The notes under the pieces: model-generated | Told to the model about the DNA's origin: nothing | The model's input: only the letters and a program-made list of their open reading frames with translations | Database searches by the model: none | Shown: positions 6,306-10,711 of the stretch, piece after piece | Layout: each line of letters opens with the position of its first letter | Numbering within the stretch: position 1 is the stretch's first letter | Assembly: GCA_003056265.1 (NCBI GenBank) | Contig: NBVN01000004.1 | Location: 30,001 to 62,000 of the forward strand | Source: Zestosphaera tikiterensis | GTDB taxonomy: Archaea; Thermoproteota; Thermoprotei_A; Sulfolobales; NBVN01 | Length of the DNA: 32,000 bases | Direction: 5' to 3' | Position numbers and translations under genes: made by a program

Positions 6306-6620
6306 ACCATCACCTTAACACTATGTCTTAATAAACCCTAATAAATGTTAACTAATCCCGTTGCTTAAACGATAAGTAAGCTGTAATTATTGAATGTCTA
6401 TTACCGCAATTAGAAACTTCACCCACAATTATAGTGGAGTTAACGCTCACCTCTTAGTAAGTCCGCTAATTTCGTTAACTCCTAAAATCTTAGGAAAAGC
6501 TAGGCAGTTCTGACGATAACTATCGTTGTTAGAGATGGTATATACTCCATGCTATAAATCGAGTATAAGTTTAGTTTATGTACTCTTTATTAATTTAACC
6601 AGCAATGTAATTAACTGGGG

Positions 6621-6935
6621 ATGTGTATGGAGGTAAGTATTTCAACCCTCACAGCATCTATGTTTTTTATCTTGTTAGCTTTTAGCGTGTTAGGGATATT
6701 GCTTGGTTTTAACGTCGGGATAATAGTAGGTGCTGACCTCACTGTATTTTCGATTATGTTTCTAGTATACGGAGCTAAAGTTAAGAAGGAGAAGGTCTTA
6801 TACGTATTTTGGGGTCTTTTAACGTTGGTTTTAGCTATAACCATAACGATCTCAACGATCTACGGTTTCATATACGGGTTAATAGCGTTGTTTATCGGTA
6901 TAGGAGTGCTGATTCTTTATGCAGGTAAGCGTTAA
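6621..6935 (+). CDS. Small polytopic membrane protein (3-4 TM), unknown function
   Basis: Almost entirely hydrophobic helices with one KVKKEK loop. It lies 54 nt upstream of, and co-oriented with, the 6989-10477 module. Confidence 0.55.
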   Translation: MCMEVSISTLTASMFFILLAFSVLGILLGFNVGIIVGADLTVFSIMFLVYGAKVKKEKVLYVFWGLLTLVLAITITISTIYGFIYGLIALFIGIGVLILYAGKR

Positions 6936-6988
6936 ACTTATTAAGTCTCAAAGGGGTTTATTTACTGTAGGTGATTGGTGATTAGGCT

Positions 6989-7492
6989 TTGACTAAAGAG
7001 AAAAGTGCTTTAGAGAAGCTTTTAGATCTTCTACCAGGTTTTCACGGGTATAAAGCGAAGGAATACCTAAGGGAGGATGATCAGCTTATTAGAGAGTATG
7101 TTTACAACATACTGGCTGATAGCGTTAGAAATATAGAGAACTCCATAGCTAGGGCATCTACGTATGATTTTAATAGTGCTGAAATTCTTAACGAGTATTT
7201 AAGGGATCTTAGATTGTTGATGGATAAGATTAGGTGGGCTGAGCACGGCTACTCCCCGCATTACGACCTTGTCAAGGTAAAGAATGAAGATCTTGAGAAA
7301 ATAAGGGAAATAGATGAGAAGTTAGTTTCTATTGCTATAGACATAAAGAATAAGAGTGTTGAGATTTTAAACGATTCAGAGCTTGGTAATCCGTTAAGAC
7401 CTAAGATAAATGAGCTGAAAAACCTTACATCTAGGGTTAGGGAGATTATTTTTGAAAGAGAAAAACAAATTAAAGGTTGGGGCGGTAAGTAA
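6989..7492 (+). CDS. All-helical, coiled-coil-like protein of unknown function; first gene of the SPFH/Zn-ribbon module
   Basis: TTG start preceded by duplicated GGTGAT (6971-6976, 6978-6983). N-terminal LPGFHGYKAKEYLREDDQLIRE motif, and charged heptad-like sequence throughout. Its stop overlaps the next start (TAATG at 7490-7494). Confidence 0.6.
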   Translation: MTKEKSALEKLLDLLPGFHGYKAKEYLREDDQLIREYVYNILADSVRNIENSIARASTYDFNSAEILNEYLRDLRLLMDKIRWAEHGYSPHYDLVKVKNEDLEKIREIDEKLVSIAIDIKNKSVEILNDSELGNPLRPKINELKNLTSRVREIIFEREKQIKGWGGK

Positions 7493-8529
7493 TGGTTATA
7501 GATAAGATAGGTAAGGGTATAGGGTTTATAGGTAGGAAGACGTCGGGTTTCGCACCTATAGTGGTAGAGTGGAGGAATGCTACACCGCAAGATATAGTTT
7601 GGAAGTTTCCGGAGGAGGTCATCCCGTGGGGATCTACAGTAATTGTTAAGGAGTGGGAAAGGGCTGTTTTCTACAGGGATGGTAAGGTTTACGGAGTTCT
7701 CGATCCGGGTAGGCATGTACTAGATACTCAAAATATACCTTTCCTTAAGGGGCTTATGGAGGGACTCTACGGCGAAAGCATATTTAAAGCTATGGTGATC
7801 TTCGTTAATATCAACAGGCTTCAAGGCAGGTTTGGAGGGCAAAGCCAAACTGTAGAGATCATCCCCGTAAAGTTCTACGGCAGTTACTACTACAGAGTTG
7901 CGGATCCCGCGCTGTTTGTGAATAAAGTCGTTGGGCCTGACAACAGGTTTACAACTGAGGAGTTAGACTCCTATATTAGAGGCTATTTCATGTCTAAACT
8001 TATTGGTTTTCTCGCACAGACTAGCATAAGGGATATTTACCAGAGGATCGATGAGGCGGGTAAGAGAGCTTTGTTTGTCTTAAGAAAGCCGTTTGAAGAG
8101 ATAGGACTCATGCTTGAGGACGTGGTTTTTGAGGGGTTAGATATACCTCCTGAGTATAGGGAGAGGATCTTCTGGTTGTTGCAAGGAACAACAGCTTCGT
8201 ATTTAGTTCAGCAGGAGACAGCAAGAAAGTTTGCTGAAGCTATAGAGAAGACTCAAGCTGGAGGGGCAGCTGTTGGGGCGGGTATTGTTGCGATTCCCTA
8301 CGCTTTTCAACCACCTCCACCATCGGCGCAGCAACCAACGCCAGGAGCCGCCGTAGGTGGGGTTACGACAGGCTATGTGGCTAGATGTCCCTATTGCGGA
8401 GGCACCCCTATCCCGCAAGGAGCTAAGTTCTGCCCGTACTGCGGCCATCAGATAAGGTGGTGTAGAAACGGTCACGTCGTTCCTTTAGAGGCTAGGTTCT
8501 GCCCGGTTTGTGGTGTGAGTGTTGAGTAG
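7492..8529 (+). CDS. SPFH/Band_7_1 (YdjI-like, COG4260-type) protein with a Pro/Ala/Gly linker and a C-terminal double zinc ribbon
   Basis: IVWKFPEEVIPWGSTVIVKEWERAVFYRDGKVYGVLDPGRHVLDTQNIPFL.. matches my memory of the 'virion core protein-like' SPFH family. The linker is QPPPPSAQQPTPGAAVGG. The C-terminus is CPYCG-x10-CPYCG..C..H..CPVCG. Confidence 0.7.
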   Translation: MVIDKIGKGIGFIGRKTSGFAPIVVEWRNATPQDIVWKFPEEVIPWGSTVIVKEWERAVFYRDGKVYGVLDPGRHVLDTQNIPFLKGLMEGLYGESIFKAMVIFVNINRLQGRFGGQSQTVEIIPVKFYGSYYYRVADPALFVNKVVGPDNRFTTEELDSYIRGYFMSKLIGFLAQTSIRDIYQRIDEAGKRALFVLRKPFEEIGLMLEDVVFEGLDIPPEYRERIFWLLQGTTASYLVQQETARKFAEAIEKTQAGGAAVGAGIVAIPYAFQPPPPSAQQPTPGAAVGGVTTGYVARCPYCGGTPIPQGAKFCPYCGHQIRWCRNGHVVPLEARFCPVCGVSVE

Positions 8530-9532
8530 TGATAGTGGTTTTAGGTGTGGTAGGTGTGGCGCACCTTTAGAAGTTTCCCCTGAGACTATAGTCTCCATAT
8601 GTTCGTACTGCGGTTACCCTAACTGGATTAGAGAGGATTTGAAAAGCGATATATACATAGTTGAAAACGTTGTTGAGGAGGAGGCTGTAAAAGCTGCAAG
8701 GAGGTATGTAGGGATCTCATCTATAGATAGACCTTTAACACTATTCATACCGTTCTACATTGTTGAAGCTAAGGCTGACGCAGACTACGAGGCTTTAGTG
8801 AGGGTTACTGTTCAGAAATGCGTGAGGGATAGTAGGGGTAGGACACGATGTATGTCGGAAAGTGTTAGGGTCAGCGTAGGTGGGGTTCTTAGAGGTTTCC
8901 ATCGCAGATACCCTATCGCCGCTAGGAAGGGGGTTAGAGGTAAAACCGTAGAGATATTATCTAAGTATATTTCATCGTCAAGTCTTAGAAGCATAAAGCT
9001 TAGCGAAGCAAACCTCGACAAAAGCAAATCAAGGTCTATATTAATGATAGATCTCTCACGCGATGACGTGAGGGATTTAGCGTTGGACAAGCATTTAGAC
9101 GCTCTACGTAAAAAAGTTGAGGATGAGATAACACGTGAGGCTAAGGTTAAAGCATCAATCCATGGTACGCCGGTATCCGCAAACATTTTGCGGAGGAGGA
9201 TAACGCCCAGAAACATAGATGTAATCATATCGACGCCTGTGTTAATTCCCCTATATATATTCGCTGACGAGGAAGGTAAGTATAAAGTTGTGTTGTCAGG
9301 GTGGGATTTAAAACCGTTGATATTGGAGAAGCCTGTGAGCTTCATATATAGGGCTGCTTGGTTTTCAGCGGGTGTTTTAGTGTCTGGTTTTGCTGGAGGT
9401 GTGGTTGGTTTCACATCTTTTTACGAGTTTAATCCGGTGCTTTCCTTAATAGCGATGGTTTTAGGTGGTGTTGGCTCTTGGTATTCAGTTAAGAAAGCTT
9501 TAAGACCCGTTAGGGTTGTAGTCGAGGTGTAG
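8519..9532 (+). CDS. Zn-ribbon protein with a soluble middle domain and a C-terminal two-helix membrane hairpin (paralog 1)
   Basis: GTG start overlapping the upstream stop by 11 nt. FRCGRCGAPLEVSPETIVSICSYCGYPN. C-terminal AAWFSAGVLVSGFAGGVVGF and VLSLIAMVLGGVGSWYSV. Confidence 0.65.
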   Translation: MLSSDSGFRCGRCGAPLEVSPETIVSICSYCGYPNWIREDLKSDIYIVENVVEEEAVKAARRYVGISSIDRPLTLFIPFYIVEAKADADYEALVRVTVQKCVRDSRGRTRCMSESVRVSVGGVLRGFHRRYPIAARKGVRGKTVEILSKYISSSSLRSIKLSEANLDKSKSRSILMIDLSRDDVRDLALDKHLDALRKKVEDEITREAKVKASIHGTPVSANILRRRITPRNIDVIISTPVLIPLYIFADEEGKYKVVLSGWDLKPLILEKPVSFIYRAAWFSAGVLVSGFAGGVVGFTSFYEFNPVLSLIAMVLGGVGSWYSVKKALRPVRVVVEV

Positions 9533-9538
9533 CTCTGT

Positions 9539-10477
9539 ATGTCTGCTGCGGGTGTTAACGTTAAATGCCCGTATTGCGGTGCTGAATACAGCGTTCCTAG
9601 GAGTGTTACGTATGCTACATGCCCTTACTGTGGAACTACATTTAAGTTAAATAACCCTGGTGAGAAGGTAGATCATTATTTATTTAAGGTGTTTATAGAT
9701 GATCAGAGAGCGTTTAGCCTTGTTAAGTCCTTTAGCTCTCAACAGGTCGGTGCTGAGAAGAGTGTTGTTAGCGAGGCTAGTTTTACTTCTTCAAAGCTTT
9801 TCTACATACCTATATACCTATATGAGGTTAAGGTAAAGGCCTTATGCAGAGATGGTAGTAGCGATTTTCACGGAGGTGAGTCTTACAACCAATACGTAGT
9901 TGCTGCTGTCGATGAACTACCTATAACGTTACCTAGAGGTTATGGCTTCCCAGCTAGGGGGAGGGAGTATTTCAAGCCTTCTATATCTAGAAACTATGTA
10001 TACCTACAACCGCTTAAAGACCCTACAGCAGTGTTTGAAGAGTTGAAAAGAGGGGATATTAATGAAGCTTTAAGTGAGGCTAGGGAGGCGTGTCCTTCAT
10101 CCAATATAGAGCTTGTTGACGAATCTAGGTATGTTGGCTTAGCGCATTATCCGTTTTGGGAGATAGAGTATTCCTATAGGAATGAAGTATTTAAAGCTGT
10201 TGTTGACGCAAGCGACGGAACTATAGTGTATCTAGAGTACCCGTTAAGTATGAAAAACTCTTTTAAAGCGTTAGTCGGGGTTTTTACAGGCGCTATCACC
10301 GCGAGTTTAATCGGCGCTATGATAGCAACACAAAACAGCACAGCCCTTATAGGAGGTATAGCTAGCTTTATAACGTTTACTCCAGCACTATATATTTCAC
10401 TGTCGGCGTTTTTGAAGAGGAAAGGTAGGTATACATACAACCCTAAAGAAGAAGCGGAGTTCTTACCAACTAGATAA
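9539..10477 (+). CDS. Zn-ribbon protein with a soluble middle domain and a C-terminal two-helix membrane hairpin (paralog 2)
   Basis: VKCPYCGAEYSVPRSVTYATCPYCGTTF. PepSY-like FWEIEYSYRNEVFKAVVDASDGTIVYLEYP. C-terminal LVGVFTGAITASLIGAMIA and LIGGIASFITFTPALYISLSAFL. Lies 6 nt after paralog 1. Confidence 0.65.
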   Translation: MSAAGVNVKCPYCGAEYSVPRSVTYATCPYCGTTFKLNNPGEKVDHYLFKVFIDDQRAFSLVKSFSSQQVGAEKSVVSEASFTSSKLFYIPIYLYEVKVKALCRDGSSDFHGGESYNQYVVAAVDELPITLPRGYGFPARGREYFKPSISRNYVYLQPLKDPTAVFEELKRGDINEALSEAREACPSSNIELVDESRYVGLAHYPFWEIEYSYRNEVFKAVVDASDGTIVYLEYPLSMKNSFKALVGVFTGAITASLIGAMIATQNSTALIGGIASFITFTPALYISLSAFLKRKGRYTYNPKEEAEFLPTR

Positions 10478-10636
10478 CTTAAAGAGAAATGAAATGTGAT
10501 ATAAACAAAATATTTTGGATTATCAAACGATTGAATTAAACGAAGTGAATGTAGGCTTCATCCACTGTAGATATTATAGATAGAGATATTATTATTTATA
10601 AGTATCTTATATTGAAGATGTTTTCTCTATTTGGAG

Positions 10637-10711
10637 CGCCGCGGCCGGGATTTGAACCCGGGTCACGGGCTCGACAGGCCCGCATACTGGGCCGGGCTAT
10701 ACTACCGCGGC
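10637..10711 (-). tRNA. tRNA-Asp (anticodon GUC); no intron, CCA not encoded
   Basis: The reverse complement folds as a cloverleaf: acceptor GCCGCGG/CCGCGGC, D arm GTAT..GTAT, anticodon stem CGGGC/GCCCG with loop CTGTCGA (GTC), T arm CCGGG-TTCAAAT-CCCGG, discriminator G. Confidence 0.95.

Follow-up and report, generated by a model that had tools for sequence, protein, structure and literature searches.

In the genome of the archaeon Zestosphaera tikiterensis (Thermoproteota, Sulfolobales), a stretch of 32,000 nucleotides (nt) of contig NBVN01000004.1 (positions 30,001 to 62,000, referred to here as the window) carries five co-oriented genes, g0 to g4 (6621-10477), which form a predicted single operon. 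These genes encode a small polytopic membrane protein (g0), an all-helical protein (g1), an SPFH protein with C-terminal zinc (Zn) ribbons (g2), and two paralogous membrane proteins (g3 and g4). On balance, the locus is probably an archaeal, PspA-less counterpart of the sub-membrane complex of SamG and SamI (YdjG and YdjI) in Bacillus, and its function would most likely be that of a PspA-independent sub-membrane scaffold or stress-sensing complex. Further, the family to which g1 belongs is a near-obligate operon partner of Band_7_1 SPFH genes in bacteria and archaea.

Pfam analysis of g2 identified a Band_7_1 SPFH domain (PF13421; 86.8 bits; cutoff, 24; E = 2.1e-24), and a C-terminal double Zn ribbon (CPYC..CPYC, then C..H..CPVC) that follows a PPPPSAQQPTPG linker and matches DZR (32.3 bits; cutoff, 27.3), with Zn_Ribbon_1 and Zn_ribbon_3 also above their cutoffs. 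The Zn-ribbon motif is also present in the Thermococcus ortholog. No hydropathy peak, and thus no transmembrane segment, was found in g2. As the Bacillus comparator, we used the pspA-ydjGHI locus of Bacillus stercoris, which was fetched with the published B. subtilis ydjG primers (PMC8581546); its YdjI protein aligns with g2 over the full length (residues 24-321) with a BLASTP E value of 4e-19. These matches identify g2 as a predicted soluble SPFH protein of the YdjI/SamI type, in agreement with the YdjI/COG4260 assignment of this gene in the original prediction, which had been made from the window's letters and open reading frames (ORFs).

The two membrane proteins are likewise homologous to a component of the Bacillus system. 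The g3 protein is related to YdjG by BLASTP (2e-8), the two being collinear from the second ribbon of YdjG to its transmembrane segment, and the g3 family profile retrieves YdjG with both hhalign (98.6%, E = 7.6e-16 over 260 columns) and hmmsearch (6e-21). The g4 family aligns with YdjG as well (hhalign, 97.5%, E = 6.9e-12), and the g3 and g4 families align with each other (hhalign, 99.5%, E = 3.6e-22 over 265 columns), which bears out the earlier suggestion that the two genes are paralogs. The AlphaFold2 (AF2) model of g4 (pLDDT 92) predicts a Zn ribbon, long beta-hairpins, a helix on a four-stranded sheet, a transmembrane helical hairpin, and a basic C-terminal tail. YdjG has been described as Zn ribbons, a YpeB-related domain, and a transmembrane segment (PMC11237479), and the predicted domain order of g4 matches this published description. 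PepSY matches are weak and below cutoff in Pfam and were found in 6 of the 39 g4-family members; apart from these and generic Zn-ribbon matches, neither g3 nor g4 matched a Pfam, NCBIfam, or PADLOC family above threshold, and the whole-chain g4 model had no meaningful neighbor in Foldseek (TM score, <0.15). A protein of Ignisphaera aggregans DSM 17230 annotated as a "zinc finger TFIIB-type domain-containing protein" is 73% identical to g4. Judging from the ribbons and the positive-inside distribution, the soluble parts of both g3 and g4 would be wholly cytoplasmic. Because g3 and g4 are homologous to YdjG/SamG, the locus is a variant of a bacterial system that has been studied and is not wholly uncharacterized; profile searches placed no component in a characterized family of unrelated function.

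YdjG-like g3-g4 pairs were also found without an adjacent g1 or SPFH gene at two places (locus L001, 14181-16377; locus L007, 7001-8932). The second pair of L001 directly follows a HEPN/nucleotidyltransferase pair, and the lone pair of L007 lies beside ribonucleotide reductase in a Thermoprotei metagenome-assembled genome.

The pspA-ydjGHI (pspA-samGHI) operon of B. subtilis and the archaeal cassette are both co-oriented single operons, and both encode a soluble SPFH protein of the Band_7_1 family in which a C-terminal Zn ribbon follows a low-complexity linker (YdjI/SamI, corresponding to g2), as well as a membrane partner that combines a Zn ribbon with a YpeB/PepSY-like domain and a C-terminal transmembrane region (YdjG/SamG, corresponding to g3 and g4). 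Unlike the Bacillus operon, the cassette lacks both PspA and the TPM-domain protein YdjH/SamH. A duplication has given it two divergent YdjG-like paralogs, which have a single ribbon and a transmembrane hairpin apiece, whereas Bacillus YdjG has two ribbons and a single transmembrane segment. The four-helix bundle g1 and the four-transmembrane protein g0 are extra genes of the archaeal cassette, and the host is an archaeon with ether-lipid membranes and no sigma-W. PspA_IM30 had no match among the five cassette proteins in Pfam, and a single-sequence hidden Markov model (HMM) found no PspA-like ORF in the window; together with negative Foldseek, hhalign, and hmmsearch results, this agrees with the earlier observation that the module holds no PspA/ESCRT-III gene. 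Similarly, TPM_phosphatase had no match in the cassette, and a YdjH HMM retrieved nothing from the window or from the archaeal loci.

Every cassette ORF has homologs, and the cassette recurs as a whole. The order g0-g1-g2-g3-g4 is present in I. aggregans (L097), where g1 and g2 again share bases at their junction and g2 and g3 again overlap by 11 nt, in different surroundings (a phosphate ABC transporter and Metallophos upstream; an integrase fragment and NurA/HerA downstream). Further Thermoproteota contigs (L001, L003-5, and L009) carry the five-gene cassette between differing flanks, once with an inserted ATPase gene, and Thermococcus sp. LS1 carries four cassette genes in the order g3-g4-g1-g2, all clearly orthologous. 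This recurrence in Thermoproteota and Thermococcus shows the cassette to be a self-contained unit that is conserved across two archaeal phyla.

The small membrane protein g0 is the fifth member of the cassette and travels with the other four genes: its orthologs occupy the same position in the archaeal loci L001, L003/4/5, L009, and L097, so the four-gene unit of the original prediction is enlarged to five. Hydropathy analysis predicts four transmembrane helices and a basic central loop (KVKKEK) in g0, for which Pfam, NCBIfam, and PADLOC gave no family above threshold. A four-transmembrane family of 115 amino acids (aa) is encoded directly after the SPFH gene in 11 metagenomic loci; its topology resembles that of g0 and the two align in hhalign (92%, E = 6.5e-7), a weaker link than the others, since the composition of transmembrane proteins inflates such scores.

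The AF2 model of g1 (pLDDT 86) contains helices at residues 24-56, 61-87, 99-132, and 137-162, and predicts a soluble, up-down four-helix bundle, with a short helix and a conserved PGFHGY loop ahead of it. The signature motifs of g1 are LPGFHGYKxKExLREDDxLIRE and AEHGYxPH, and the signature across the family is IPG[FY]xGY[KR]xKExRRExD...AxxGYxGxFD; what had appeared earlier as an unusual N-terminus is instead the hallmark of a large SPFH-linked family. Homologs were found in 28 clusters, Ignisphaera among them, by a word-indexed search, and an exhaustive HMM search over 1.84 billion representatives (clusters at 50% identity) raised this number to 1085 clusters (E ≤ 1e-3), of which 474 reached E ≤ 1e-10. 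The members are nearly all 160-190 aa long, and those with a name are all annotated as "hypothetical." Their hosts include Desulfurococcales, Pyrobaculum, Infirmifilum, Thermococcus (the ortholog of which aligns in hhalign at 4.7e-22), Bathyarchaeia, Lokiarchaeota, Culexarchaeia, Armatimonadota, and Thermodesulfobacteriota. Residues P16, Y21, D31, R35, and R157 are invariant across the family, and G17, G20, E25, R28, G87, Y88, L102, and D109 are nearly so. In the predicted fold, the conserved residues P16, Y21, E25, R28, D31, R35, G87, Y88, D109, and R157 should lie at one pole of the bundle and form an interaction site.

No Pfam, NCBIfam, or PADLOC family matched g1 above threshold, and ten family members searched against Pfam yielded none for this region. 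The g1 model had no fold match in the PDB at E < 0.1 (Foldseek), the top matches being generic bundles (IncA, the Tar ligand-binding domain, and designed proteins; E > 0.1, TM score < 0.5), and sequence-profile searches against the PDB returned coiled-coil noise only. Similarity of g1 to YdjH was not found. A g1 identity with PspA or ESCRT-III was ruled out by four approaches: the g1 profile aligned to PspA with an hhalign probability of 0.1, hmmsearch gave 0 bits, and neither the top 50 Foldseek hits against the PDB nor the PDB profile searches contained ESCRT-III, PspA, or Vipp1. The PspAA domain, which consists of three helices along with a sheet of four strands (PMC11237479), was rejected on architecture because the g1 model is composed of helices only.

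Bacterial g1 relatives do match the NCBIfam model LIMLP_15305_fam (NF047596), which covers uncharacterized Leptospira proteins, over nearly the full length (E values of 1e-8 to 1e-17; 35-63 bits), at scores that do not reach the equivalog cutoff of 210 bits; the g1 protein of the window itself had no match at E ≤ 1. On these matches below the cutoff, g1 and LIMLP_15305 belong to one superfamily, and their relation stops at that level. The single paper found to mention the LIMLP_15305 locus tag lists it just as a small-RNA neighbor, and we found no functional description of either the LIMLP_15305 family or the g1 family in the literature. Two g1 relatives, P0133 from Lokiarchaeota (L016, 6001-6666) and P0145 from another lineage, carry an N-terminal Zn ribbon on the g1 domain. 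The ribbon can therefore occur on the SPFH, the YdjG-like, or the g1 component, which hints that it is an interaction module common to the components.

The gene context of the g1 family was surveyed by HMM at the best 80 of 570 relatives, using as the query for the metagenome scan a 10-sequence alignment of bacterial-type and Lokiarchaeota g1 members. A Band_7_1-like SPFH gene lies directly downstream of g1 in 57 of the 64 loci with at least 600 nt of downstream sequence, and a YdjG-like gene lies directly upstream in 9 of the 46 loci with at least 900 nt upstream; a PspA gene was found in none of the 80. In all archaeal loci examined, g1 stands directly upstream of a Band_7_1 SPFH gene. The g1-SPFH dyad was also seen on individual inspection of an Armatimonadota locus that reads g1-DUF4178-like-Band_7_1/SHOCT and of a Lokiarchaeota locus in which a Zn ribbon-g1 fusion precedes Band_7_1.

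Several side observations accompanied the survey. Proteins of the g1 family are sometimes fused to DUF4178 or have DUF4178 encoded after them (P0176; L014, 2801-4855), a domain otherwise reported only in PspA/polyamine operons (PMC11237479). Locus L093 (457-3731), one of the exceptions in the survey, contains a g1-DUF4178-NfeD-stomatin operon, in which a transmembrane-anchored SPFH protein of the stomatin type replaces Band_7_1. Directly upstream of bacterial g1-SPFH dyads, 10 loci (e.g., L024, 386-907) encode a protein of ~173 aa that has transmembrane helices at its N terminus and a CxxC motif at its C terminus; it may be an alternative membrane anchor in place of the YdjG-like protein.

In B. 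subtilis, YdjI is soluble, and its membrane foci and the recruitment of PspA require YdjG and YdjH (PMC8581546). SamI (YdjI) has also been proposed to restrain signaling by a SamG-SamH membrane complex (bioRxiv 10.64898/2026.02.06.704340). The sequences show the homology to this system and the linkage of the cassette genes; from these we infer the contacts, stoichiometry, and output of the archaeal cassette as follows. The g3 and g4 proteins, probably as a heteromer and perhaps together with g0, would form a membrane-embedded receptor or sensor. This receptor would recruit g2, which could oligomerize beneath the membrane as a scaffold. The g1 protein, standing in the operon slot of Bacillus YdjH/PspA, would bind the SPFH scaffold as a regulator or client, and the output would be the sensing or stabilization of membrane integrity independently of PspA.

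Several points weigh against this interpretation. The physical contacts of g2 with g1 and with g3/g4 are predicted from the arrangement of the genes and from remote bacterial homologs, which share 22-24% identity. YdjH/SamH, the main anchor and signaling subunit in Bacillus, is absent here, so the Bacillus wiring is not directly transferable. The g3-g4 pairs that lack a nearby SPFH or g1 gene imply that the pair may also work by itself. The clustering of conserved g1 residues at one pole was deduced from helix topology and not from coordinates. The 80 surveyed loci are those that best match a single bacterial query alignment and do not sample the family at random, and a g1 clade with the N-terminus MSDLFE/MGDLFE... 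(L044, L060, L083, L087, and L090) has no adjacent SPFH gene. This clade, which accounts for most of the exceptions in the survey, is followed by FAD-binding, 2Fe-2S, and molybdopterin genes of the xanthine-dehydrogenase family.

A wider proposal, which we advance tentatively and with less conviction than the counterpart of SamG/SamI, is that Band_7_1 scaffolds have in the g1 family an ancient, dedicated physical partner. With YdjG-like anchors and the small four-transmembrane protein, this family would constitute a PspA-independent membrane-maintenance system of bacteria and archaea, in which g1 would be the regulator or effector in the role that PspA plays in Firmicutes.

It is unlikely that g1 is an effector in the stricter sense, that is, a functional analog of PspA/ESCRT-III whose bundle opens and polymerizes on damaged membrane after recruitment by the SPFH and YdjG-like proteins, which would make the cassette a membrane-repair machine instead of a sensor or scaffold. 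The g1 gene does occupy the position of the PspA/YdjH-type partners in the Bacillus operon, and PspA itself is missing from all of the surveyed loci. PspA, Vipp1, and ESCRT-III are all-helical like g1, of similar size, and encoded beside SPFH/YdjG-type genes in Firmicutes. Closed ESCRT-III monomers are, like the g1 model, compact helical bundles. The DUF4178 domain fused or adjacent to some g1 relatives has otherwise been reported in PspA operons (PMC11237479). However, g1 has neither sequence nor predicted-fold similarity to these proteins, as described above; its helices are about 30 residues long, whereas ESCRT-III typically has hairpins longer than 50 residues, and an amphipathic membrane-binding helix is not evident.

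A similarly low probability is given to a g2 cage around a membrane client (g3, g4, or g0), which it would sequester or regulate, with g1 as an assembly factor, in the manner of HflK/C-FtsH or stomatin-NfeD, for quality control or for channel/transporter regulation. SPFH proteins generally organize membrane clients (bioRxiv 10.64898/2026.02.06.704340), the small polytopic g0 could be such a client, and one g1 homolog resides in the g1-DUF4178-NfeD-stomatin operon of L093. The SPFH-NfeD (stomatin/NfeD and QmcA-YbbJ) and HflK/C-FtsH systems resemble the cassette in combining an SPFH scaffold gene with a dedicated operon partner and in their membrane or sub-membrane organizing role. They differ from it in that g2 lacks the transmembrane anchor of the cage-forming HflK/C and stomatins, and the partner of g2 is cytosolic and all-helical, not an OB-fold NfeD. 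No NfeD domain was found in the cassette proteins with Pfam, and no protease or transporter domain with Pfam and NCBIfam. In addition, YdjI, the closest characterized homolog of g2, is soluble and recruited.

The possibility of an envelope-linked defense module, raised in the original prediction and considered here as antiviral defense or abortive infection, is very improbable. Some carriers have neighbors of the kind usual in defense islands, including Cmr2 of a type III CRISPR system upstream in L009 (1-4669), an inserted ATPase_2 and HEPN/MNT genes in L001 (9761-10972 and 13373-14096), and PIN and KaiC-like/nSTAND3 genes in L004 (5114-7265), and the flanks of the cassette vary between genomes. 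Nevertheless, PADLOC returned no match better than an E value of 0.025 for the five proteins, scans with two alignments found no relatives in IMG/VR viral contigs, and the cassette contains no nuclease, NTPase, or other effector domain. Housekeeping translation genes flank it in the window, and the homologous Bacillus system is an envelope-stress system. An accidental adjacency of functionally unrelated genes is close to excluded by the joint recurrence with conserved start/stop overlaps between different flanks, in Ignisphaera, other Thermoproteota, and Thermococcus (Thermococcales), and by the g1-SPFH dyad in 57 of 64 loci.

Membranes are universally organized by SPFH proteins, but studies of the soluble branch, Band_7_1, come only from Bacillus, in which this branch is linked to PspA. 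The pairing of YdjG with YdjI is already known in Firmicutes; we found no literature description of an archaeal form without PspA and YdjH that has duplicated YdjG-like anchors, g1, and g0. The locus shows the YdjG-YdjI core in hyperthermophilic archaea in the absence of PspA or YdjH, and its genes are candidates for the coupling of SPFH scaffolds to membrane stress without ESCRT-III-like proteins and for the monitoring of ether-lipid membrane integrity in archaea. The most valuable by-product of the analysis is that it brings out g1 as a family of widespread partners for Band_7_1 SPFH proteins. The locus points to this unnamed family, which has more than 1000 clusters at 50% identity, no Pfam model, and no literature, as the operon partner that Band_7_1 proteins have most often in bacteria and archaea; the family merits a new domain definition.

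The ORF list confirms the co-orientation and tight packing reported earlier for g1 to g4. The g1 stop and the g2 start share a TAATG (7490-7494), g2 and g3 overlap by 11 nt (8519-8529), and g3 and g4 are separated by 6 nt (9533-9538). The peptide motifs quoted in the original prediction (LPGFHGYKAKEYLREDDQLIRE, PPPPSAQQPTPG, and CPYCG..CPYCG..CPVCG) are present in the translations, in which four Zn ribbons can be counted (g2 has two, and g3 and g4 have one apiece, at C10/C13/C28/C31), consistent with the four or more CxxC ribbons noted earlier. Shine-Dalgarno (SD)-like GGTG motifs precede g1, g3, and g4. The combination of GGTG motifs before internal genes with a candidate TATA-like element upstream of g0, which itself has no SD-like motif, fits a single transcript starting from g0. 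The operon proposed earlier is further strengthened by the junction overlaps retained in I. aggregans. Coordinates of all features are given in Table 1.

Table 1. Features of the g0-g4 cassette and its surroundings (positions in the window)
Feature	Position	Strand	Remarks
Candidate TATA-like AT-rich promoter element ctttattaatttaac	6584..6598	+	Putative; ~25-35 nt 5' of g0 start
g0	6621-6935	+	104 aa; end lies 54 nt upstream of g1
g1	6989-7492	+	167 aa; TTG start
g2	7492-8529	+	345 aa; ATG start
g2 Band_7_1 SPFH domain	7597..8169	+	aa 36-226; PF13421
g2 C-terminal double Zn ribbon	8386..8514	+	aa 299-341
g3	8519-9532	+	337 aa; GTG start
g3 N-terminal Zn ribbon	8546-8611	+	aa 10-31
g3 C-terminal Gly-rich transmembrane hairpin	9356-9490	+	aa ~280-324; hydropathy peaks
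g4	9539-10477	+	312 aa; ATG start
g4 Zn ribbon	9566-9631	+	aa 10-31
g4 PepSY/YpeB-like alpha+beta domain	10022-10246	+	aa 162-236
g4 transmembrane helical hairpin	10250-10414	+	aa 238-292
tRNA-Asp (GTC)	10636-10711	-	In convergent gap g4/Nop10

The cassette is surrounded by translation and RNA genes on the minus strand, as noted earlier, with Pus10, SRP54, and aIF5A upstream and tRNA-Asp, Nop10, aIF2-alpha, S27e, L44e, and S26e downstream. The tRNA gene was the sole Rfam/ARAGORN match in the region examined. Antisense ORFs of up to 200 aa lie opposite g1-g4 on the minus strand (7261-7716, 8203-8475, 8812-9414, and 10174-10440). The GC skew of +0.2 to +0.3 over 7-11 kb reflects a coding strand with a strong excess of G over C, and the antisense ORFs are probably artifacts of this skew; they were taken as spurious because conserved homologs exist only for the plus-strand ORFs.

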